This document shows, one piece after another, positions 11,008 through 50,753 of a DNA stretch of 64,000 nt. This DNA comes from Candidatus Nanoarchaeia archaeon (GTDB lineage: Archaea > Nanobdellota > Nanobdellia > Woesearchaeales > DATDTY01): the NCBI GenBank assembly GCA_035290625.1, contig DATDTY010000033.1, forward strand, positions 20,482 to 84,481. Direction: 5' to 3'. Position numbers and translations under genes: made by a program. The notes under the pieces are model-generated. The model saw only the letters and a list, made by a program, of their open reading frames with translations, was not told the DNA's origin and searched no databases. The stretch's first letter is position 1. Each line of letters begins with the position of its first letter.

Positions 11008-11075
11008 TGCGGGGAGCAGGCAGCGCAACTCACTTCGTTCGTTGCTGGCCTGCTCTCCTCGTTCATTTCATTCAC
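11008..11075. repeat. tRNA minihelix-like element, 68 nt. Begins with a copy of the 13 3'-terminal nt of the adjacent tRNA (RC gcggggagcagg). Forms a hairpin with gcctgctctcc.
   Basis: Direct repeat of the tRNA 3' end 55 nt from the true tRNA end. About 90% identical to the units at 30357..30498, with compensatory differences. Confidence 0.55.
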
Positions 11076-11239
11076 TGCGGGGAGCAGGATTCGAACCTGC
11101 GTAGGCACTAAGCCAACAGATGGCCCGCCTGAGTAGTTCATCAGACCTGGGTGAGGACCTCAACACTCATGACTTGAGTATGGACGTTTTAGCGCCTGTC
11201 GCCAAACTCTGTCCCGTTTGGCCACTCCGGCATCCCCGC
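11076..11239 (-). tRNA. Intron-containing class II tRNA (Leu-like). Long variable arm UGGCUUAGUGCCUAC and discriminator A. 164 nt, implying an intron of about 80 nt. Anticodon unresolved.
   Basis: Acceptor GCGGGGA/UCCCCGC. D arm CCG-GAGUGGCCAAA-CGG. Anticodon stem ACAGA/UCUGU separated by 87 nt. T arm GCAGG-UUCGAAU-CCUGC. Near-identical scaffold to the tRNA-Leu at 30499..30582. Canonical 37/38 splicing would give the loop GUUUGGA. Confidence 0.6.
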
Positions 11240-11285
11240 ATTGTGCGGAGTAGAACGCCCCGTGTTTTAAATATGTTGCTTTTTG

Positions 11286-11525
11286 GGCTCAGTAGAAAGT
11301 CAGTCGGCAGTGGCTTGCAAGCGAGCAAGGCGAGCTTGCTCGCTAGCCACCGGCTCGCTTGTGCTTCCTTCACTGTTTGCTGACACCCCCGAAGGTGCTA
11401 AAAAGAGCCATGCTCTTTTGGCACATCAAAACGCCAGAGGGCGTTTTGATTGGGCCAACCCTCTGTCAGCGGTGCTATAAAAGTAAATAAGCTCGCAGAA
11501 AGGATGCCGGACTTTCTACTGAGCC
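11286..11525. mobile_element. MITE-like element family 1, copy 2 (240 bp; carries an extra internal palindromic insertion). Same 16-bp terminal inverted repeats. Flanked by tttttg.
   Basis: Terminal repeats identical to copy 1. The internal insert gcaagcgagcaaggcgagcttgctcgc is itself palindromic. Confidence 0.7.
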
Positions 11526-20933: not shown

Positions 20934-21078
20934 GGCTCTGTAGAAAGCCAATCGGCATCGGGCTCGCCTGTGGGGAGATAGGCGATTGCTGACACCCCCG
21001 AAGGGGTCTACCCCCTGTCAGCAGTGCTGATGAAGCTGAAGAAGCTCGCAAAAATGATGCCGGGCTTTCTACAGAGCC
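20934..21078. mobile_element. MITE-like element family 1, copy 3 (145 bp). Terminal repeats GGCTCTGTAGAAAGCC / GGCTTTCTACAGAGCC, with two compensatory base changes relative to the other copies. 7-bp flanking gtgaatc.
   Basis: A->T and T->C changes in the left arm are matched by T->A and A->G in the right arm. Internal 9-bp duplication gaagaagct. Confidence 0.7.
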
Positions 21079-21122: not shown

Positions 21123-21980
21123 ATGGCCTATCTCTTTCGCTCTGTTGTTGGAAACGTCGTCTTTGATGAACACTTGAGCATCCTTGAGGGTTCTGCTGGA
21201 TCAGGCATTCAGGAGATTCCAGCACATCTCGTTCCAAAGGCGCTTAAGGCGCTCAAGGACCCCAGATTTTTCTCCTTGTTCAGGAAGGCGAACATTGAGC
21301 TGACGAAGGCAGACATCCGGACTGCTGTTACTGAAGACGTCCTGATCGTCCAGGCAGTCCATATGCTTGATGAACTCCATCGGGCGATGAATATGCTGAG
21401 CACCCAGTTCAGGGAATGGTATGGCTATTATAACCCTGAATTCTCATGGCAGCAGACAGACAACTCAAAATTTATTGACTGTGTTGCTTCCGGCGCTGCT
21501 CCAAAAGCCCTTGACAGCATGGGAGGCAATCTTTCCAAGAAAGATGCGGTTTTTCTGCAGGAGATGAGCATAAAGCTTGGCCAGCTCAACAGCCTGAAAG
21601 CTGATCTTGAGGAGTACCTTGACGGCCTGATGGGGCGAGTCTGCCCAAATGTGGCTGCAATCACCGGGTTTCTCATCGGAGCAAAGCTGCTCGAGAAGGC
21701 AGGATCTCTCCGCCGCCTCTCTGAACTTTCAAGCCAGACAGTCCAGGTATTGGGGGCAGAAAAGGCGTTGTTCAGGCATCTGCGGAATAAGAGGATGCTT
21801 CCGCCAAAATATGGCCTGCTCCATGAGCATCCCCTGATCATGAAAGCACCGAAGGCTGAGCACGGCAAGCGCGCCCGGTTTTTGGCAGACAAGATTGCGA
21901 TTGCATCGAAGGTCGATTATTTCAAGGGCCCTTTTATAGGAGACCGGATCACTAATGAACTGCATCAGAGGTTTCCATGA
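21123..21980 (+). CDS. nop5: C/D-box snoRNP protein Nop5 (Nop56/58 homolog), short form apparently lacking the coiled-coil domain
   Basis: NOP5 N-terminal domain. Nop domain AAITGFLIGAKLLEKAGSL ... GAEKALFRHL. Operon with fibrillarin. Confidence 0.8.
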   Translation: MAYLFRSVVGNVVFDEHLSILEGSAGSGIQEIPAHLVPKALKALKDPRFFSLFRKANIELTKADIRTAVTEDVLIVQAVHMLDELHRAMNMLSTQFREWYGYYNPEFSWQQTDNSKFIDCVASGAAPKALDSMGGNLSKKDAVFLQEMSIKLGQLNSLKADLEEYLDGLMGRVCPNVAAITGFLIGAKLLEKAGSLRRLSELSSQTVQVLGAEKALFRHLRNKRMLPPKYGLLHEHPLIMKAPKAEHGKRARFLADKIAIASKVDYFKGPFIGDRITNELHQRFP

Positions 21981-22633
21981 ACGAGACTTTTAAGGGCGTT
22001 TTTGCAAAAGGCAAGGACTTCTATACCAGGAATATTGTTCCTGGCACAAGCGTCTATGGAGAGGCCCTTGTCAAAGAGGGCAAGGCTGAGTTTCGGCAGT
22101 GGAATCCCAACAAATCCAAGCTGTGCGCCAGCCTCCATAAGAGGATATCGCAGATCGGAATCAAGCCCGGGATGGCAGTATTGTACTTAGGCAGCTCTAC
22201 AGGAACCACTGTCTCGCATGTTTCGGATATTGTTGACCCGGGGTTTGTGTTTGCGCTTGACAGCAGCCCGAGAGTGATGAGGGATCTTGTGCACCTCTGC
22301 GAACGCAGGAGCAATATCGCGCCTGTGCTTGCTGACGCTCGCCACCCTGAGCGCTATGCCCACCGCATATCCCGGGTTGATGCCCTCTACCAGGACGTCA
22401 GCCAGAAGAACCAGGTTGAAATCTTTAAAAAGAACGCAGATATGTTCCTGAAGCCCGGCGGGTTTGGGGTGCTGTGCATCAAGGCACGGAGCATTGATGT
22501 TACCAAATCTCCCAAAGCAATTTTTAGCCAGGTCCGCAAGGAATTAGAAATCTTTATAACCCTTGTTGATTACCGAGAGCTTGATCCCTTCCAGAAGGAT
22601 CATATCATCTTCGTTTGCAAGAAAAGTCCATAA
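21977..22633 (+). CDS. flpA: Fibrillarin-like rRNA/tRNA 2'-O-methyltransferase
   Basis: LYLGSSTGTTVSHVSDIV SAM-binding motif. Overlapping start with nop5. Confidence 0.9.
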   Translation: MNETFKGVFAKGKDFYTRNIVPGTSVYGEALVKEGKAEFRQWNPNKSKLCASLHKRISQIGIKPGMAVLYLGSSTGTTVSHVSDIVDPGFVFALDSSPRVMRDLVHLCERRSNIAPVLADARHPERYAHRISRVDALYQDVSQKNQVEIFKKNADMFLKPGGFGVLCIKARSIDVTKSPKAIFSQVRKELEIFITLVDYRELDPFQKDHIIFVCKKSP

Positions 22634-30361: not shown

Positions 30362-30498
30362 GATGTATGCGGGAGACAGGCAGCGCAACTCACTTCGCTC
30401 GTTGCTGGTCTGTCTTCCTCGCTCATTTCATTCACTGCGGGAGACAGGCAGCGGAATTCGCTGCGCTCATTCCTGGTCTGTCTCCCTTGTCTTTTGAC
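30357..30498. repeat. Two tandem tRNA minihelix-like units (about 70 nt each). Each ends, in tRNA sense, with the 13-nt tRNA-Leu 3' end CCUGUCUCCCGCA. The first overlaps the L18e start codon.
   Basis: tgcgggagacagg occurs three times in direct orientation (30357, 30431, 30499). Units are about 90% identical to 11008..11075. Hairpin arms gggagacaggc / gtctgtcttcc. Confidence 0.55.
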
Positions 30499-30582
30499 TG
30501 CGGGAGACAGGATTCGAACCTGCGTAGGCACTAAGCCACATGGTCCTTAGCCATGCCCGTTTGACCGCTCCGGCACTCCCGC
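30499..30582 (-). tRNA. tRNA-Leu, class II, anticodon read as AAG (loop CUAAGGA), 84 nt, no intron
   Basis: Acceptor GCGGGAG/CUCCCGC. D arm CCG-GAGCGGUCAAA-CGG. Anticodon stem CAUGG/CCAUG. Variable arm UGGCUUAGUGCCUAC. T arm GCAGG-UUCGAAU-CCUGU. Discriminator A. Confidence 0.75.
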
Positions 30583-30593
30583 AAACCGGACTG

Positions 30594-33361: not shown

Positions 33362-36064
33362 ATGGTTTTAAGAAAATTAACTAAAGAACAGGCGAAAGAA
33401 GAAGTTAAGAAATTAGTAGACAAATATGTCAGGATAGTTGAATCCGGCTCTATTAAAAGATACAAAGAAGAGGATACAAAAGCGGAGTTTATCGAGCCGT
33501 TATTTGAAGCGTTAGGTTGGGATGTCAGAAATACAGAAAATGATGATGAGGTAGTAAGAGAAGAAAAAATCTCAAAGGGCAGAGTAGATTACTCTTTTAG
33601 GATTAATGGAATACCTAAATTTTTCTTGGAAGCAAAAGCACTAAAAGAGGATTTAGACAATATCAAATTCGTGGAACAGGCAGTAAATTATTCCTGGCAC
33701 AAAGGCTGTACCTGGGCAGTCCTTACCGATTTTGAAGCTATCAAGATTTTTAATGCTGAATGGAAAAGCGCAAACCCTTTACAGGCACAATTCGGGCAAA
33801 CCTTGCCTTGTCAATTATTCTTAGAAAAATTTGATACTTTGTGGCTTTTATCAAGAGAAAGCTTTGAGAAGAAACTTCTTGATATTGAAGCAGAAAAATG
33901 GGGTAAAAAAATAAAAAAAACAGCTGTTGATAAACAGCTTTTAAGTGATTTGACAAGATTCAGGGATTTGCTAAACAAGAATATTCTAAAAAATAATTCT
34001 TCAAAGAATATTTCTGGCGATGAATTAGACGAAGCCGTCCAGCGCATAATTGACAGATTAATCTTCATCAGAACTCTTGAAGATAAAGAATTAGAAGCCC
34101 CCATGTTGCAGTCAGTCATCAGGGAGGATTTAAACAAAAGAATCTACAAAAAATTAAACCTCATTTTCAGAAAAATCGATGACATTTACAACAGCAAACT
34201 ATTTACTCCTCACTTATGCGAAGATTTGGACGTAGATGATGAGGTTTTATCAAAGATAATTGGTGGATTGTTTGCTACAACCGATAATACTGTGCGTTAT
34301 GACTTTTCTGCTATTGACGCTGATGTTTTAGGCAACATTTACGAGCAATATTTAGGGCATATTCTAAAGAAAACTGATAAAAGAGCCAAATTAGCAGAGG
34401 GGAAAGCACACAGAAAAGAACAGGGAATATATTATACTCCCACTTATGTAGTAGACTACATTGTTAAAAATACAGTTGGTGAATTAGCTAAAGACAAAAA
34501 ATTTGATTTAAAGAATGTCAAGATTTTAGACCCTGCCTGCGGCTCTGGCTCATTCTTAATGAAAGCATTTGATTATCTTGTCACTCTTGACAAAAAGAAG
34601 AATGGGGAAGTCGACCAGACAAAGCTTGATTTAACTGGGGCTGGCGCTTCATACGGGAGGAAAGTGGAGATATTGAAAAATAATATTTTTGGCGTCGATT
34701 TAGACCCTAAGGCTGTAGAGATAGCTCAGTTGAACTTACTATTGAAAGCAGCAGAGAAAAAACACAGACTGCCAACACTACAAGAGAATATTAAGGTAGG
34801 AAATTCATTAATTGATGATTCTGCTATTGCAGGGAATAGGGCTTTCAAATGGGAAGAACAATTTAAGGATATTATAGCTGATGGTGGGTTTGATGTGGTG
34901 ATTGGGAATCCGCCTTATGTCGAAGCAAGGCAAATAGGACAAAAGTATGTTGATTTTTATAGGGGAAATTTTAAAACCGCCGGTAATAGAATTAATACAT
35001 TCTCTCTATTTATTGAAAAATCAATTAGTTTGTTAAGTGAACATGGCTTATTCGGGATGATAGTGCATAAAAATAGCATACGTTCAAATGATTACATAAA
35101 ATTAAGACAATTTGTTTTGGATAATTGTAAAATATTAAAGATACTTCCAATAGGCGCAGGTGTTTTTGAAGGAGTAACTGGAGAAATGGTTATTCTAATA
35201 TTTCAGAAAGATAGCAATATGAAAGAAAGATTGAAGAATATTGTTTTTCACGGTGGAAAAGATTCAATGTCAAACAAGACTTCTTACCAAAAATTATCTC
35301 AAAGAATCTTTTATGAAATTCCTGGTAATAGATTTAATGTTTATCTAAATGAAACGAAAATAAAAATATTAGAAAAAATAAAAAGCGAGAGTATTGAGCT
35401 TAAAGAAATTGCTTATACTAAACAAGGGATAATTGTTGGAGACGAAGAAAAATATGTCAAAAAAACGAAAGAATCTGAAAAATATAAACCTGTTTTGCGT
35501 GGTAGGAATATATCTAGATATAATATAACCTTTGGCAATGAATATTTATTTTACGTACCAGGTACAGCAGTACTAAAAAGAGGAAAAACACCAGACTTAT
35601 TTGAGAAACCAGAGAAAATTTTGACACAACATGTTTCCGGGAGAATTATAGCCGCTCTGGATTGTGATGAGTATTATGCTTTGCAAACAATTAATCTTAT
35701 TTTCTCAAAGGGTAAAATTTCAAATAAATATCTCTTGGCACTACTCAACAGCAAATTAATTAATTTTTATTACGATAGCTATTTTAATATGGGTTCTGAG
35801 TTTACTACGGCAGTTGCAACAGAAAATTTAGATTTATTACCTATAAAACAAATTCCGGAAAAACAACAGCCCATTATTAAACTAGCAGATAAAATGATTT
35901 CTCTTAACAAAAATCTTAATGGATTAAAAGACAAGCAAACCGACGAAAAAGCCCGTCTTGAGAAAGAAATCCAGAAACTAGATTCTGAAATTGACGAAGA
36001 AGTTTACAAATTGTACGGCATAACAGAAGAAGAAAAGAAGATAATTGAGGAGAGCTTGAAATGA
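33362..36064 (+). CDS. Type IIG (MmeI/Eco57I-like) single-chain restriction-modification enzyme. N-terminal PD-(D/E)xK nuclease, central gamma-class N6-adenine methyltransferase, C-terminal target-recognition region.
   Basis: GRVDYSF ... FFLEAKAL nuclease motif. DPACGSGSFLM (motif I). VIGNPPYV (motif IV). 900 aa. About 33% GC, against roughly 50% in flanking genes. Confidence 0.75.
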   Translation: MVLRKLTKEQAKEEVKKLVDKYVRIVESGSIKRYKEEDTKAEFIEPLFEALGWDVRNTENDDEVVREEKISKGRVDYSFRINGIPKFFLEAKALKEDLDNIKFVEQAVNYSWHKGCTWAVLTDFEAIKIFNAEWKSANPLQAQFGQTLPCQLFLEKFDTLWLLSRESFEKKLLDIEAEKWGKKIKKTAVDKQLLSDLTRFRDLLNKNILKNNSSKNISGDELDEAVQRIIDRLIFIRTLEDKELEAPMLQSVIREDLNKRIYKKLNLIFRKIDDIYNSKLFTPHLCEDLDVDDEVLSKIIGGLFATTDNTVRYDFSAIDADVLGNIYEQYLGHILKKTDKRAKLAEGKAHRKEQGIYYTPTYVVDYIVKNTVGELAKDKKFDLKNVKILDPACGSGSFLMKAFDYLVTLDKKKNGEVDQTKLDLTGAGASYGRKVEILKNNIFGVDLDPKAVEIAQLNLLLKAAEKKHRLPTLQENIKVGNSLIDDSAIAGNRAFKWEEQFKDIIADGGFDVVIGNPPYVEARQIGQKYVDFYRGNFKTAGNRINTFSLFIEKSISLLSEHGLFGMIVHKNSIRSNDYIKLRQFVLDNCKILKILPIGAGVFEGVTGEMVILIFQKDSNMKERLKNIVFHGGKDSMSNKTSYQKLSQRIFYEIPGNRFNVYLNETKIKILEKIKSESIELKEIAYTKQGIIVGDEEKYVKKTKESEKYKPVLRGRNISRYNITFGNEYLFYVPGTAVLKRGKTPDLFEKPEKILTQHVSGRIIAALDCDEYYALQTINLIFSKGKISNKYLLALLNSKLINFYYDSYFNMGSEFTTAVATENLDLLPIKQIPEKQQPIIKLADKMISLNKNLNGLKDKQTDEKARLEKEIQKLDSEIDEEVYKLYGITEEEKKIIEESLK

Positions 36065-36921
36065 CTGAAAAAGATAAAGCTCTCGTTGTCTTCCAAGACA
36101 GGAAAATAAGGAGAGTATGGCATCAAAACCTGTGGTTTTTTTCAGTAATTGATATTGTAGCTATTTTGACGGAACAAGAAGACCCGTATACTGCAAGAAA
36201 ATACTGGAATAAGCTGAGCCAACGGCTAAGAGAAGAGGGAAGCGAAGTGGTGACAAATTGTCACCGGTTGAAACTTCCGGCAGAAGATGGAAAGCTAAGA
36301 GAAACCGATTGCGCTAATACTGAAAGCATATTTAGGATTATCCAATCAATTCCATCAAGGAACGCAGAACCATTCAAAAGATGGCTTGCTAAAGTTGGGT
36401 ATGAGCGTGTGCAGGAAATAGAAAACCCTGAACTAGCGCAGGAGCGCATGAAAGAGCTTTATGAGCAGAAAGGATATTCAAAATCATGGATTGACAAACG
36501 GCTGAGAGGAGTAGCAGTAAGACAAGATCTCACTGATGAATGGAAGAAGAGAGGAATTGAAAGCCAAGACGATTTTTCAATACTCACTGCGGAAATATCA
36601 AAAGCCACTTTCGGCATGACTCCAAGTGAATACAAAAAATTCAAAGGGCTTACAAAGGAAAACCTAAGAGACCATATGAGGGATTTAGAACTCATATTTA
36701 CCATGCTAGGAGAAGCATCAACTGCGGAGATTGAACGCATAAAAGACCCTGTTAAGTTCGCTGAGCACAAAAAAGCATCTAAGGAAGGTGGGAATGTAGC
36801 GAAAAAAGCAAGACTCGAGCTAGAAAAAAAGACGAAAAGCCCGGTTGCGAGCAGAGAAAATTACCTTGAAGAGCCTGAAAAAGAAAAGCGAAAAAGGCTA
36901 CCTGAACCTGAAAAGGATTGA
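36061..36921 (+). CDS. Bro-N-like N-terminal domain plus DinD-like (DNA-damage-inducible protein D family) C-terminal domain; paralog 1
   Basis: ALVVFQDRKIRRVWHQNLWFFSVIDIVAIL (Bro-N / KilA-N-like). KGLTKENLRDHMRDLELIFTMLGE resembles E. coli DinD KGLKKNQKILDHMGSTEL. ATGA overlap with the RM stop. Confidence 0.5.
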   Translation: MTEKDKALVVFQDRKIRRVWHQNLWFFSVIDIVAILTEQEDPYTARKYWNKLSQRLREEGSEVVTNCHRLKLPAEDGKLRETDCANTESIFRIIQSIPSRNAEPFKRWLAKVGYERVQEIENPELAQERMKELYEQKGYSKSWIDKRLRGVAVRQDLTDEWKKRGIESQDDFSILTAEISKATFGMTPSEYKKFKGLTKENLRDHMRDLELIFTMLGEASTAEIERIKDPVKFAEHKKASKEGGNVAKKARLELEKKTKSPVASRENYLEEPEKEKRKRLPEPEKD

Positions 36922-36931
36922 TGATAAGATA

Positions 36932-37003
36932 GGTGAGAAAGTCCACAAGCTCTACGGCATAACTGATGAAGAAAAGAAGCTTATTGAGGATTCATTAAAA
37001 TGA
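36932..37003 (+). pseudogene. Relic 3' fragment (24 codons, GEKVHKLYGITDEEKKLIEDSLK*) of a second RM gene. About 75% nt identity to 35992..36063. Preceded by in-frame stops.
   Basis: Direct comparison: gtccacaagctctacggcataactgatgaagaaaagaagcttattgaggattcattaaaatga versus gtttacaaattgtacggcataacagaagaagaaaagaagataattgaggagagcttgaaatga. The same ATGA stop/start overlap with the downstream gene is present. Confidence 0.6.
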
Positions 37004-37245
37004 CTCAAAAAACACTTGACGGAAAAGACGTTGAAGAGCCAAGTATTTGGTCAGATGGCTCTTTTGCTGAAACTCTTGGTCCGTCAGATATGAAAGTAAA
37101 GATGCGTACTTTTCATATGAAACACGATGAGGAAATGGATTTCAACTGCTCAAATTGCAAGGTTAAAATTTCAGCTCATAACAAGGACTGGCACAATGGA
37201 ATGTGTGATAAGTGTTTCAATAAGGAGTTTTTCCCAGAGGATTAA
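37000..37245 (+). CDS. Small Cys-rich (zinc-ribbon-like) protein, 81 aa
   Basis: CSNCKV ... CDKC motif. Confidence 0.4.
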   Translation: MTQKTLDGKDVEEPSIWSDGSFAETLGPSDMKVKMRTFHMKHDEEMDFNCSNCKVKISAHNKDWHNGMCDKCFNKEFFPED

Positions 37246-37247
37246 AA

Positions 37248-38099
37248 ATGGACAAAGACAAGGCTCTCGTAGCATTTCAGGATAAGAAAATCAGGAGGAT
37301 TTGGTACAATCAGGAATGGTTTTACTCGGTTATTGGCATCGTTGAAGTTCTTACAGACAGCCCAACTCCTAGGCAGTATTGGGGAAAAGTCAAAGACAGA
37401 GAATTCATAGCTCTTGAACTGTCCCCAATTTGGGTACAGTTGAAATTGGCAGCAGAAGATGGCAAATTGCGGTTTACGGACTGTGTTAACACCAAAAATG
37501 CCTTTAGGCTAATTCAATCCATTCCTTCAAAGAAAGCAGAGCCTTTCAAACAATGGCTTGCGCAATTGGCTCAAGAGCGCATTGAGGAGATAGAAAATCC
37601 TGAATTAGCCCAAGATAGGGTGAAAGAATACTATGAACTCAAAGGTTATCCGAAGGATTGGATAGACAAGCGTCTGAGAGGCATTGCCATACGGCAGGAA
37701 TTGACTGATGAATGGAAAGATCGAGGCGTCACAGAAGAAACAAATTTTGCAATCCTCACAAACGAGATAAGCAAAGCAACTTTTGGAAAGACTGTTCAGG
37801 AATACAAGGAACTCAAAGGCCTTAAGAAAAAGAATCAAAACCTCAGAGACCACATGACAGATTGGGAACTCATATTCAATATGCTGGGAGAAAAGGCCAC
37901 AACCGACATCACAAGGACAAGAGACGCACAAGGATTTGAGGAAAATAAGCAAGCTGCGAGAAGAGGAGGCCAAATAGCCCATAATGCGAGAAAAGAACTG
38001 GAACAAGAAACAGGCAAATCCGTGATCTCAAAAGATAATTTTCTAAGCCTTACTGAACAGAAAAAGCTCGAAAACAAGAAGAAAAACGACAAGAAATAG
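37248..38099 (+). CDS. Bro-N-like plus DinD-like protein; paralog 2
   Basis: ALVAFQDKKIRRIWYNQEWFYSVIGIVEVL. KGLKKKNQNLRDHMTDWELIFNMLGE. Roughly 55% identical to paralog 1 over the aligned regions I compared by eye. Confidence 0.5.
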   Translation: MDKDKALVAFQDKKIRRIWYNQEWFYSVIGIVEVLTDSPTPRQYWGKVKDREFIALELSPIWVQLKLAAEDGKLRFTDCVNTKNAFRLIQSIPSKKAEPFKQWLAQLAQERIEEIENPELAQDRVKEYYELKGYPKDWIDKRLRGIAIRQELTDEWKDRGVTEETNFAILTNEISKATFGKTVQEYKELKGLKKKNQNLRDHMTDWELIFNMLGEKATTDITRTRDAQGFEENKQAARRGGQIAHNARKELEQETGKSVISKDNFLSLTEQKKLENKKKNDKK

Positions 38100-50611: not shown

Positions 50612-50753
50612 GGGCTCAGTAGAAAGTCAATTGGCATCAGACTCGCTTGCGCTCGTATTCGTGTATGCTGCCCCCCGAAGTTGGCAACTCTGTCAGCAGT
50701 GGTTATGACTGCAAAGAAGCTCGCAAAAATGATGCCGGACTTTCTACTGAGCC
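50612..50753. mobile_element. MITE-like element family 1, copy 4 (142 bp). 16-bp terminal repeats identical to copy 1. Perfect 8-bp target-site duplication gtattgag (50604-50611 and 50754-50761).
   Basis: Terminal repeats and abutting direct duplications read directly. Lies upstream of gyrA. Confidence 0.8.

Follow-up and report, generated by a model that had tools for sequence, protein, structure and literature searches.

The locus described here raises three questions: which amino acid is served by a class II tRNA gene in which the two strands of the anticodon stem, ACAGA and UCUGU, lie 87 nt apart; how the intervening nucleotides are removed; and what a C-box-like motif among them is for. 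The window, i.e. the whole stretch of DNA that was analyzed, has a length of 64,000 nt and carries the gene on its minus strand. Read from 11239 to 11076, the 5' part is GCGGGGA UG CCG GAGUGGCCAAA CGG G ACAGA, followed by the 87 nt, and the 3' part is UCUGU UGGCUUAGUGCCUAC GCAGG UUCGAAU CCUGC UCCCCGC A. The acceptor stem, D arm, variable arm, T arm and discriminator A are those of the neighboring tRNA-Leu gene (30498-30583); the variable arm is identical, and one base differs in the T stem. The first-pass annotation had described a 164-nt class II gene of the leucine type with these arms and with this separation of the anticodon-stem strands, and the minus-strand sequence agrees with it apart from the one base of the T stem.

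Gene layout, identity and relatives

The 87 nt consist of two introns and a 7-nt exon, which gives the following layout:

11076..11239, minus strand: whole predicted tRNA-Leu(CAA) gene; precursor body of 164 nt, 84 nt after both introns are out
11209..11239, minus strand: exon 1, tRNA positions 1-30 (acceptor 5' strand, D arm, G26, ACAG of the anticodon stem)
11180..11208, minus strand: intron 1, 29 nt, at the non-canonical position 30/31; A GUUUGGCGACAGGCGCUAAAAC GUCC AU
11173..11179, minus strand: exon 2, 7 nt, ACUCAAG, tRNA positions 31-37, with the anticodon CAA inside
11122..11172, minus strand: intron 2, 51 nt, at the canonical position 37/38
11076..11121, minus strand: exon 3 (A38, UCUGU, variable arm, T arm, acceptor 3' strand, discriminator A)

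Once the two introns are taken out in silico, the sequence folds into a cloverleaf with a long variable arm, a 3-bp D stem with a large D loop and a 7-nt anticodon loop. It has the leucine anticodon and U33 in the loop CUCAAGA, and the discriminator A73, of a class II tRNA-Leu. Default ARAGORN reports this spliced sequence as tRNA-Leu(caa), 84 nt, with the same loop. With intron 2 alone removed the program gives Leu(caa), i(33,29), and with intron 1 alone removed Leu(caa), i(39,51). The unspliced sequence is treated differently: ARAGORN without intron mode makes no call at the locus, and with introns allowed it reports tRNA-Gln(ttg), i(40,80), i.e. with an 80-nt intron, which is a mis-parse. 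No call was obtained from Rfam at its gathering and E-value thresholds; the top match covers the T arm only (14.5 bits), and the rest is noise. Because there are two introns in one gene, standard tRNA finders miss or mislabel it. Odd anticodons are also given by ARAGORN to many intron-bearing genes of related loci, most of which are probably two-intron Leu genes.

A genome scan for similar genes returned at least 120 stretches, and 69 of the matches listed are single genes with a long insert. The CAA architecture is common to 28 of these 69, each on its own contig and nearly all in separate MAGs. Together with 25 Leu-UAG genes, at least 53 genes among the matches listed have the same two-intron architecture; they come from Woesearchaeota, Pacearchaeota and Nanoarchaeota MAGs. 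One Leu(UAA) gene (L001) was judged by eye to be built in the same way. The 24 genes that were aligned over exon 2 all have ACUCAA, and 22 of them have G at position 37. Against a covariance model built on the intron-2 region, the window copy scores 65 bits (E ~1e-14). Two other parses were tried and dropped, since the conserved exon of the relatives is ACUCAAG: a Leu-CAG reading, with the loop CUCAGG+A generated via introns of 74 nt and 6 nt, and an anticodon arm GGUCC/GGGCC.

The locus is very probably a functional tRNA-Leu(CAA) gene of a Woesearchaeota-like DPANN archaeon, with two protein-spliced bulge-helix-bulge (BHB) introns; architecture and splice motifs are established at the level of sequence. 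The other possibility for its status, a tRNA-Leu gene broken by insertion and no longer processed, is very improbable. Such a pseudogene would agree with the silence of the default tRNA finders, with slightly weakened helices in the window copy (A.C in the second central helix, H2, and U.U in the C-stem, see below) and with the 3' trailer, which lacks the T-run found in most relatives and has a 13-nt repeat of the tRNA 3' end. The trailer element complementary to the tRNA 3' end occurs in the window copy only and, by comparison with the relatives, is not a family feature. Against loss of function, every Leu-defining exon position is intact, at least 28 CAA-type genes are built alike, show compensatory changes and retain intact splice motifs, and the tRNA has PCNA and RNase J genes nearby in the window as in several relatives. 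A TATA-like box is also correctly placed:

11265..11274, minus strand: A/T-rich TATA-like box ATATTTAAAA, 26-35 nt upstream of the mature 5' end

This box is a probable archaeal promoter element; a sigma-70 promoter scan is not applicable to archaeal promoters.

Splice motifs of the two introns

The elements assigned to the excision of the introns are as follows, BHB-1 belonging to intron 1 and BHB-2 to intron 2:

11211..11214, minus strand: BHB-1 central helix, exon strand GGAC (tRNA 25-28), then 5' bulge AG|A
11182..11185, minus strand: BHB-1 central helix, intron strand GUCC, pairs with GGAC; then 3' bulge AU|A
11186..11207, minus strand: intron-1 hairpin (h' of BHB-1), GUUUGGCG-ACAGG-CGCUAAAAC
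11175..11178, minus strand: BHB-2 central helix, exon strand CUCA (tRNA 32-35), then bulge AG|U
11124..11127, minus strand: BHB-2 central helix, intron strand CGGG, then 3' bulge CC|A
11164..11171, minus strand: intron-2 helix h', 5' strand, CAUGAGUG
11128..11135, minus strand: intron-2 helix h', 3' strand, UACUCAGG

For the excision of intron 1, GGAC (positions 25-28) would be released from the D and anticodon stems to pair with GUCC near the 3' end of the intron; the 5' bulge AG|A would lie between this 4-bp helix and the intron-1 hairpin, and the 3' bulge AU|A would follow the helix. Formation of BHB-1 requires the opening of one D-stem pair and of part of the anticodon stem. In the 53 genes among the matches listed, 211 of the 212 cells of the central helix are paired, against 9-55% when the partner strand is slid, and 0 of 2000 shuffles reached the observed value. 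Compensatory changes are seen at position 27 (A-U, G-C, C-G, G.U) and at position 28 (U-A, C-G, A-U, U.G). The closing pairs of the intron-1 hairpin are formed in 51, 46 and 51 of the 53 genes, again among the matches listed. The boundary is placed at 30/31 because the first intron base and tRNA position 31 differ in the bases permitted: A, C or U for the former in the relatives, and only A or G for the latter. The UAG family, with G31 as opposed to A as the intron base, pins the site. Intron 1 has the 4-bp H, the 3-nt 5' bulge and the intron hairpin h' of the HBh' type; the outer helix of a strict hBHBh' motif is limited to G25-C62, the next position being C24.U63. As BHB-1 has no proper outer helix at its 3' bulge, it is of the relaxed HBh' form. 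The hairpin segment also contains a conserved antisense to the variable arm.

Intron 2 carries a predicted canonical BHB motif, slightly weakened in the window copy. It would be composed of the anticodon stem, the central helix CUCA:CGGG, the bulges AG|U and CC|A and the intron helix. The annotation had found the canonical pairing of positions 32-35 with the intron to be absent; CUCA:CGGG provides it, with 3 bp and an A.C mismatch. Among the matches listed, the central helix has 4 bp in 20 of 28 relatives, the intron strand being UGAG or UGGG, and 92.9% of its cells are paired in the 28 genes. The outer helix h is ACAGA:UCUGU, which is contiguous only once intron 1 is out, and h' is formed by positions 69-76 and 105-112 of the precursor (p69-76:p105-112) with one A.G mismatch. 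BHB-1 and BHB-2 compete for positions 27-28, so they cannot exist together and splicing must be stepwise. Ligation of the three exons would yield the 84-nt tRNA with the loop CUCAAGA. A gene for the splicing endonuclease (EndA) was not found among the about 50 ORFs of the window that were scanned.

A single intron of about 80 nt, excised at 37/38 or at a relaxed motif to leave GUUUGGA (Gln-like) or another loop, has next to no likelihood: the ARAGORN call on the unspliced sequence and the ability of UGGC (p36-39) to pair with GCCA (p116-119) speak for it, but it offers no 4-bp helix with two 3-nt bulges in BHB geometry (on each strand the helix, then the bulge), its product would combine G32 and a Gln anticodon with a Leu class II body, UGGC:GCCA is missing in three relatives (L014, L074 and L104), and both the invariant ACUCAA and the 211/212-paired helix two bases before it are left unexplained. 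The annotation had favored a single relaxed intron with a GUU bulge and the UGGC:GCCA pairing, which can be drawn, and had overlooked the anticodon CAA in the 7-nt exon. It was right that a lone splice at the canonical position gives a nonsensical Gln loop, and its fallback of more than one intron is the arrangement now found.

The kink-turn in intron 2

The C-box-like motif noticed in the first-pass annotation, GUCUGAUGA, is located at 11146..11138 and belongs to the bulged strand of a conserved kink-turn:

11160..11163, minus strand: kink-turn non-bulged strand UUGA (D'-like NNGA)
11143..11159, minus strand: kink-turn C-stem hairpin GGUCCU-CACCC-AGGUCU, one U.U mismatch in the window copy
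11138..11142, minus strand: kink-turn bulged strand, 3-nt bulge GAU and sheared GA, the 3' part of GUCUGAUGA

The C-stem, the 3-nt bulge, the tandem G.A/A.G and the non-canonical stem of a kink-turn are all found in the sequences. Among the matches listed, GA is present on the non-bulged strand in 23 of 25 genes (it is absent in L044 and L104) and on the bulged strand in 25 of 25; in the bulge, L2 is A in all 25 and L3 is U in 23. In the alignment G79 is invariant and A80 is conserved in at least 90%. All six pairs of the C-stem show changes on both sides, with 97.8% of the cells paired (matches listed), and the stem was found independently by RNAalifold prediction; in the window copy it has a G.U closing pair in addition to the U.U mismatch. 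Shuffles give 0.193 and slid partners no more than 0.115, compared with an overall covariation score of 0.396. In the CAA family the non-canonical stem is continuous with the intron helix that abuts BHB-2.

The arrangement is that of L7Ae-binding K-turns in box C/D and H/ACA sRNAs, rRNA Kt-7 and archaeal RNase P RNA: a canonical stem closed by G-C, G.U or A-U, a 3-nt bulge with L3 = U, tandem sheared G.A/A.G and then a non-canonical stem, in which 3b.3n is U-A or U.U and 4b.4n mainly A.A or A.G, mostly non-Watson-Crick. It differs from them in its location in a tRNA-Leu intron and in that protein binding is predicted. Its apical placement, with a loop-capped C-stem, is nearer to the upper-stem arrangement of H/ACA RNAs than to the terminal C/D motif. 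The module (NNGA, C-stem hairpin, NAU-GA) would be expected to bind L7Ae. To our knowledge, L7Ae is universal in Archaea; its gene was not found among the about 50 ORFs scanned in the window.

A second GA/GA motif was sought in introns and exons and was not found, and terminal C and D boxes are absent. Since the GA/GA motif is single, a full box C/D sRNA in intron 2 is ruled out. An H/ACA-like reading is ruled out as well, as there is neither an ACA box nor a pocket, and Rfam gives no sRNA family at the locus. The candidate boxes of intron 2 are the D'-like UUGA and a C'-like AUGAACU with 4 of 7 matches; the bulged strand keeps just RUGA of the C-box consensus. Of the C/D-box-like intron that had been suspected, the UGAUGA stands, in a kink-turn of the box C/D sort, and the complete C/D guide RNA does not. 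No clean kink-turn of a comparable kind was seen in the tRNA-Met intron of L042.

Antisense to the anticodon loop and possible functions

The stretch that directly precedes the D'-like NNGA on its 5' side could base-pair with positions 31-36 of the anticodon loop, a relation which, like the kink-turn signature, is read from the sequences themselves. UGAGU within the 5' strand of h' (CAUGAGUG) is antisense to A31-A35, and C34 pairs with G72 (11168), which holds position -5 relative to the D'-like box. Among the matches listed, position -5 pairs with C34 in 22 of 25 two-intron genes, positions -2 to -4 pair in 24-25, and the spacing GAGU-N3-GA is retained in 20 of 25. UU at -6/-7 pairs with A35 and A36 in 16 and 20 of the 25 and is mostly unpaired in the intron helix. 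In the window the duplex is 5 bp long, or 7 bp with two bases of intron 1 included; in relatives its length is 4-7 bp. The ACUCA:UGAGU hairpin is favored by thermodynamic folding. Complementarity to C34 is lost in L085 and L091, in which the intron helix is kept by compensatory change, and there is no pairing with C34 in L058 either. A C/D guide requires Nop5 and fibrillarin, and both are encoded in the window, 10 kb from the tRNA gene:

21123-21980, plus strand: Nop5 gene (Pfam Nop, E = 3e-43)
21977-22633, plus strand: fibrillarin gene (Pfam Fibrillarin, E = 1e-77)

The complementarity to C34 and the presence of Nop5 and fibrillarin in the window make a cis guide for Cm34 in intron 2 plausible but unproven. 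In an alternative fold of the precursor, UGAGU just 5' of the D'-like box would pair with A31-A35, so that C34 would face the nucleotide at -5 from that box. C34 would then receive a 2'-O-methyl group from L7Ae, Nop5 and fibrillarin, in cis or, once the intron is excised, in trans, before or during splicing, as with the Haloferax tRNA-Trp intron. The most likely role of the kink-turn, put forward tentatively, would be that of a single C'/D'-type module guiding 2'-O-methylation of C34. Weighing against a guide are the single kink-turn without terminal C and D boxes, the short antisense element, the bulged strand with little of the C-box consensus, the three genes that do not pair with C34 (L058, L085 and L091), the two without GA on the non-bulged strand (L044 and L104), the lack of an Rfam sRNA family at the locus, and the negative outcome for EndA and L7Ae genes among the about 50 ORFs scanned.

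Alternatively, the kink-turn may be purely architectural, a reading that has to be taken seriously while being itself short of probable. L7Ae would clamp the apical part of intron 2 for the folding of the helix and BHB-2, or would stabilize or mark the excised circular intron; there would be no methylation, and UGAGU:ACUCA would be a mere alternative fold of the precursor that, for example, frees positions 25-28 for BHB-1. The direct passage of the non-canonical stem into the intron helix in the CAA family agrees with this, as do L085 and L091, in which the helix is held in spite of the lost C34 pairing, the single kink-turn, and the shortness of the antisense element (5-7 nt vs. the ~10 nt usual in archaeal guides). 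It is opposed by the conservation of UU at -6/-7 and of GAGU beyond the needs of the helix, while the C-stem varies freely. In L110 UUUGAG is kept with only one of the seven positions -8 to -2 paired in the intron helix, by count, and in L036, L043, L054, L020 and L031 it is kept mostly outside the helix, as judged by eye. Two observations on the UAG family point in the same direction. Its kink-turn strand seems, by eye only, to compete with the splicing helix, and it has the same BHB-1 and no anticodon-loop hairpin; BHB-1 is therefore independent of the hairpin.

In its wider form, the guide reading would make intron 2 a minimal single-kink-turn cis guide acting on C34 before splicing, and the UAG sister introns would use GGUGU for C39 across the 3' splice junction. 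Woesearchaeota and their kin would then carry a half-size family of intron-borne guides with one site per tRNA, matching the tRNA-Trp sites 34 and 39, and the intron-1 antisense to the variable arm may join the same system of precursor remodeling. This extension is possible, and is offered with slightly more reserve than the guiding of C34 itself.

Multi-intron tRNAs and introns at position 30/31 are already known (PMC4090602). Canonical and non-canonical BHB/HBh' introns in one pre-tRNA are described for Thermoproteales, Nanoarchaeota and ARMAN (Marck & Grosjean 2003; Sugahara 2007/2008; reviewed in PMC4090602), and DPANN EndA enzymes with the L3 loop accompany more disrupted tRNA genes (PMC5829648). 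The locus joins this known kind: its introns would be protein-spliced, with 4-bp helices flanked by 3-nt bulges, 30/31 figures on the list of non-canonical sites, an intron of each kind is present in one gene, and the splice motifs are mutually exclusive, implying stepwise processing. It departs from the known cases in that the hosts are Woesearchaeota and Pacearchaeota, the pair at 30/31 and 37/38 leaves the anticodon loop itself as a 7-nt micro-exon, this pair is found in Leu(CAA) and again in Leu(UAG), and the canonical intron bears a kink-turn. What is new is the variant of an intron-borne guide-like module.

The nearest model for such a module is the tRNA-Trp intron, which guides Cm34 and Um39 (PMC11408192). 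Both introns are located at 37/38, contain a kink-turn-forming GA/GA motif, follow with their antisense the rule of the fifth nucleotide upstream of box D for C34, and have guide and splicing folds that are alternatives; applied to the UAG family, the rule gives position 39, the guided sites of tRNA-Trp being C34 and U39. The tRNA-Trp introns have about 100 nt, the full C, D', C', D set and two guides of ~10 nt, whereas here there is one kink-turn (D'-like NNGA and RUGA) without terminal C/D, a C-stem hairpin replaces the K-loop, the antisense has 5-7 nt, the tRNA is Leu and the function is a prediction. For a Pyrococcus C/D sRNA, the predicted target is C34 of tRNA-Leu(CAA) (Lowe snoRNAdb, cited in PMC7668247), i.e. 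the same nucleotide of the same tRNA species; that guide is a stand-alone sRNA of full size, whereas the candidate described here is embedded in the intron of its own target. Cm34 has been seen in some tRNAs, tRNA-Leu(CAA) not being named among them (PMC7668247). In the literature consulted, nothing relevant was found on kink-turns or C/D motifs within tRNA-Leu introns or introns of DPANN archaea.

The sole tRNA-Leu(CAA) candidate of the window is invisible to default ARAGORN and to Rfam, and becomes Gln when introns are allowed. DPANN genomes have been reported with 'incomplete tRNA sets' (PMC5829648), which mislabeled two-intron Leu genes would partly explain. The analysis documents a recurrent combination of introns at 30/31 and 37/38, between which the anticodon loop stands as a 7-nt micro-exon, and a canonical intron with a conserved kink-turn beside an antisense element aimed at the wobble base. 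If the module does guide, intron-encoded methylation reaches beyond tRNA-Trp, a single kink-turn 'half' guide can act in cis, and there would be a concrete selective reason for the retention of these introns.

Structure of the tRNA-Leu gene

The tRNA gene on the minus strand at 11239..11076 (164 nt, read directly from the sequence) has the order GCGGGGA UG CCG GAGUGGCCAAA CGG G ACAGA (87 nt) UCUGU UGGCUUAGUGCCUAC GCAGG UUCGAAU CCUGC UCCCCGC A. The first-pass annotation had described a class II leucine scaffold with ACAGA and UCUGU 87 nt apart, and this description is accurate. Apart from the insert, the gene and the tRNA-Leu at 30498-30583 are nearly colinear: they have identical variable arms, D arms of one type and discriminator A, there is a one-base difference between their T stems, and the anticodon stem (ACAGA/UCUGU here, CAUGG/CCAUG in the neighbor) is fully compensated. 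The gene was called neither by ARAGORN in default mode nor by Rfam. Intron-enabled ARAGORN returns, for the unspliced gene, a tRNA-Gln(ttg) with an 80-nt intron, exactly the product that the first-pass annotation had derived from a single splice at 37/38 and considered implausible.

Related loci (numbered with an L below) were collected from a set with a single genome for each species, by searching for the D-arm motif with a T loop 95-125 nt further on. At least 120 stretches were found, mostly in MAGs of Woesearchaeota, Pacearchaeota or Nanoarchaeota. Among the 120 matches listed, about half are two adjacent tRNAs and 69 are lone genes that carry a long insert; in 28 of these genes an invariant ACUCAA(G/A) stands in the insert after CC(A/U)(A/U), and in 26 others the insert has (G)CUUAGG. 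The window gene is accordingly divided as follows (p, position in the 164-nt precursor; window coordinate = 11240 - p).

Parts of the tRNA-Leu(CAA) precursor
p1-31, minus strand: exon 1, tRNA 1-30
p32-60, minus strand: intron 1, 29 nt
p61-67, minus strand: exon 2 (ACUCAAG), tRNA 31-37
p68-118, minus strand: intron 2, 51 nt
p119-164, minus strand: exon 3, first base A38

The product spliced in silico (84 nt, loop CUCAAGA) is called tRNA-Leu(caa) by ARAGORN with no options, and a cloverleaf is predicted for this mature sequence. With one intron removed, Leu(caa) is returned together with the remaining intron, i(39,51) or i(33,29). The locus is very probably a two-intron tRNA-Leu(CAA) gene with a kink-turn. 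Of the earlier alternatives, a relaxed motif or more than one intron, the relatives favor two introns; a single relaxed intron has no fitting motif geometry, would give a Leu body with a Gln anticodon, and ignores the conserved micro-exon. A pseudogene is contradicted by compensated helices kept in 28 CAA-type genes, each on its own contig (among the matches listed), by the TATA-like box 26-35 nt upstream of the gene, and by PCNA and RNase J genes near the tRNA in several relatives and in the window. Parses with a Leu-CAG loop or a GGUCC/GGGCC arm were dropped once the relatives were aligned.

Splice motifs and order of processing

In a motif of the bulge-helix-bulge (BHB) kind each strand consists, 5' to 3', of an outer helix, a 4-nt central-helix strand, a 3-nt bulge and the other outer helix, and cleavage occurs after the second of the three bulged bases (slash below). 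The motif of intron 2 (BHB-2) fits the canonical case. Its central helix joins C32-A35 (CUCA) to CGGG by three pairs and an A.C in the window (UGAG or UGGG replaces CGGG in relatives), its bulges are AG/U and CC/A, and its outer helices are the anticodon stem and the intron helix p69-76 with p105-112. The motif of intron 1 (BHB-1) is a relaxed HBh' in the usual nomenclature. Here GGAC (tRNA 25-28) pairs with GUCC (p55-58), the 5' bulge A29 G30/A lies between the central helix and the intron-1 hairpin (p33-54), and the 3' bulge is AU/A31; on its 3' side no real outer helix was found, only the pair G25-C62. Judged from these sequence motifs, both introns would be cleaved out.

In 53 genes of the CAA and UAG families (two-intron tRNA-Leu genes sorted by anticodon, among the matches listed), the BHB-1 helix has standard pairs in 211 of 212 cells, that is, pair positions counted across the aligned genes. 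Position 27 is paired as A-U, G-C, C-G or G.U and position 28 as U-A, C-G, A-U or U.G; slid partners pair in 9-55%, and none of 2000 shuffles matched the observed value. The intron-1 site is placed at 30/31 and not at 31/32, because position 31 is G in the UAG family (first intron base A or U) and must be A in the CAA family (first intron base A, C or U). Since positions 27-28 are needed by both motifs, in BHB-2 for the anticodon stem, BHB-1 and BHB-2 are mutually exclusive and processing must be stepwise. In Methanopyrus kandleri pre-tRNA-Glu, the canonical intron was found to be the first to go (PMC5829648). In Archaea it is established that introns occur at 30/31 and that canonical and non-canonical ones are found together (PMC4090602), and the two-intron architecture of tRNA-Leu(CAA) belongs to this already known type. 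A Woesearchaeote and a Pacearchaeote are among the DPANN lineages reported to have L3-loop EndA alongside more disrupted tRNA genes and apparently incomplete tRNA sets (PMC5829648).

Intron 1 also contains, at 11186-11207, a conserved antisense to the variable arm (11103-11111), AGGCGCUAA:UUAGUGCCU in the window, with 9 of 9 positions paired. The longest contiguous run averages 8.1 nt in 28 genes versus 5.7 for shuffled introns; a weaker antisense to the D loop (11216-11222; GUUUGGC:GCCAAAC) reaches 6.6 versus 5.0. Both pairings occur in the unconstrained MFE fold. The hairpin-loop AGG takes part; its conservation is not accounted for by the splicing hairpin on its own. No box follows the intron-1 antisense.

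Kink-turn and guide-like complementarity of intron 2

In a MAFFT alignment of 24 genes, intron 2 is invariant or almost so at G74, U75, G79, A80, A99, U100, G101 and A102, with variable positions between them. The pattern in 25 genes is GAGU NNN GA (stem-loop) NAU GA NNN (A/G)CUC, with the first GA in 23 genes and the second in all 25; in the bulge, L2 is A in 25/25 and L3 is U in 23/25. The C-stem closes with G-C, G.U or A-U; U-A and U.U predominate at 3n.3b, A.A and A.G at 4n.4b, and regular pairs lie beyond. As C-stem, 3-nt bulge, tandem sheared G.A and non-canonical stem are all present, the element is a kink-turn, and its sequence suggests a binding site for L7Ae. In the window this element is a little degenerate, with U.U mismatched in the C-stem and G.U as its closing pair. 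A covariance model of the region (R1, 11 seeds) matched 28 copies. In its alignment the C-stem has changes on both sides in 6/6 pairs and 97.8% of cells paired, and the overall covariation score is 0.396, compared with 0.193 in shuffles and no more than 0.115 once partners are slid. These figures are biased towards the model to which the alignment was fitted, and all covariation counts here take related sequences as independent. RNAalifold, applied independently to the same alignment, found the same two helices around an asymmetric loop. The C-box-like motif of the first-pass annotation, GUCUGAUGA (11146..11138), is made up of the C-stem's 3' strand together with bulge and sheared GA; it survives as half of a conserved kink-turn and not as part of a box C/D sRNA, for which the second motif is absent, the b-strand retains only RUGA of RUGAUGA, and Rfam gave no match.

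In box C/D RNPs the fifth nucleotide upstream of the box sets the methylated nucleotide. In tRNA-Leu(CAA) the place of a D' box is taken by the four nucleotides just 5' of the C-stem, which are UUGA in the window and AUGA, GUGA, ACGA or CUGA among relatives. Directly 5' of them is (U)UGAGU-N, the complement of A31-C32-U33-C34-A35(-A36), in which G72 (window 11168), the fifth nucleotide upstream, pairs with C34. This pair is present in 22 of 25 two-intron genes, positions -2 to -4 are paired in 24-25, and UU at -6/-7, mostly unpaired in the intron helix, pairs with A35/A36 in 16 and 20 of the 25. UUUGAG at unchanged spacing is found in the single-intron loci L036, L043, L054, L020 and L031 and in the two-intron locus L110, mostly outside the intron helix (1 of 7 positions paired in L110; the others by eye), and several of the six have near-consensus CUGA and AUGAAGA boxes. 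An ACUCA:UGAGU hairpin is favored by the nearest-neighbor model in the full precursor and in the form lacking intron 1; the fold that combines the BHB-1 helix with this guide hairpin evaluates to -46.2 kcal/mol, the BHB-2 fold to -40.1. C34 of tRNA-Leu(CAA) is the predicted target of a stand-alone Pyrococcus C/D sRNA (PMC7668247). The window also encodes Nop5 (21123-21980, 285 aa) and fibrillarin (21977-22633, 218 aa), an operon with overlapping stop and start (21123-22633) 10 kb from the tRNA.

The kink-turn intron could thus be a cis guide for tRNA methylation, with C34 as the putative methylated nucleotide. Against this, the duplex has only 5-7 bp, there is only one kink-turn, L085 and L091 lack the C34 pairing while compensatory changes keep their intron helix, L058 also lacks it, and in L044 and L104 the non-bulged strand has no GA. 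For these reasons the cis guide is regarded as possible but somewhat doubtful; a kink-turn serving purely as an architectural L7Ae site is about equally likely.

Among the matches listed, about 26 tRNA-Leu(UAG) genes have the same 30/31 and 37/38 intron pair (e.g., L016, L019, L023, L050; also L062, L088, L089, L100 and others). In about 16 of the 26, intron 2 has a like kink-turn preceded by GGUGU, which complements the last two intron bases and A38-C39-C40, across the 3' splice junction. Its -5 position lies opposite C39 (10 introns by script, 5 mis-parsed ones by eye), and L101, with GGUGC, shows the C39 pairing too. By eye, the bulged strand (GCUGUGAUU) can instead form the splicing helix with the intron's 5' portion (UGACCACAGC), so kink-turn and splicing folds look mutually exclusive in this family. 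The tRNA-Trp intron, which in Haloferax guides C34 and position 39, is the sole example of an intron-embedded guide given in a 2024 review (PMC11408192). A literature search of incomplete coverage turned up neither a kink-turn nor a C/D-like module described for introns of tRNA-Leu or of DPANN tRNAs.

Genomic surroundings and annotation of related genes

Copies of a MITE-like repeat, whose terminal inverted repeats are 16 nt long (GGCTCAGTAGAAAGTC; 8 matches to the arm versus 0.6 expected), occur at 1636-1771, 11286-11525, 20934-21078 and 50613-50753. The 240-nt copy at 11286-11525 lies directly upstream of the TATA-like box, and its fold is very stable (z = -7.9); the remaining copies are about 136-145 nt long. 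The 3'-terminal 13 nt of the tRNA (CCUGCUCCCCGCA; 11076-11088) recur 55 nt downstream (11008-11020), with a hairpin between the copies (arms 11011-11021 / 11048-11058), and unlike most relatives the gene has no T-run right after the discriminator. This arrangement resembles what an element leaves behind after integrating at the 3' end of a tRNA gene. In L015, L067 and L109 the tRNA 3' end is likewise directly repeated downstream, and in L069, L071, L073 and L114 the tRNA-Leu 3' half is partially duplicated downstream of the intact gene, at a distance of a few tens of nt. These att-site-like duplications suggest frequent integration into tRNA-Leu genes in these lineages. A low-GC island at 33362-38099 (33-41% versus about 48%) encodes a 900-aa restriction-modification fusion enzyme of Eco57I/MmeI-like type, together with two proteins that have Bro-N domains, and is probably a mobile or defence island.

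tRNA-Leu with the anticodon AAG (loops CUAAGGA or UUAAGGC) is common in these DPANN MAGs, in the window at 30498-30583 and at many loci such as L022, L028, L039, L045, L093 and L105. Such A34 tRNAs would, to our knowledge, be unexpected in Archaea, where G34 is normal and the A34 deaminase is absent. At the 120 loci listed, intron-enabled ARAGORN assigns many odd anticodons to intron-bearing genes (Gly-tcc, Val-gac, Gln-ttg, Ile-aat). Most of these are probably two-intron Leu genes, which would amount to a systematic annotation error for these genomes.
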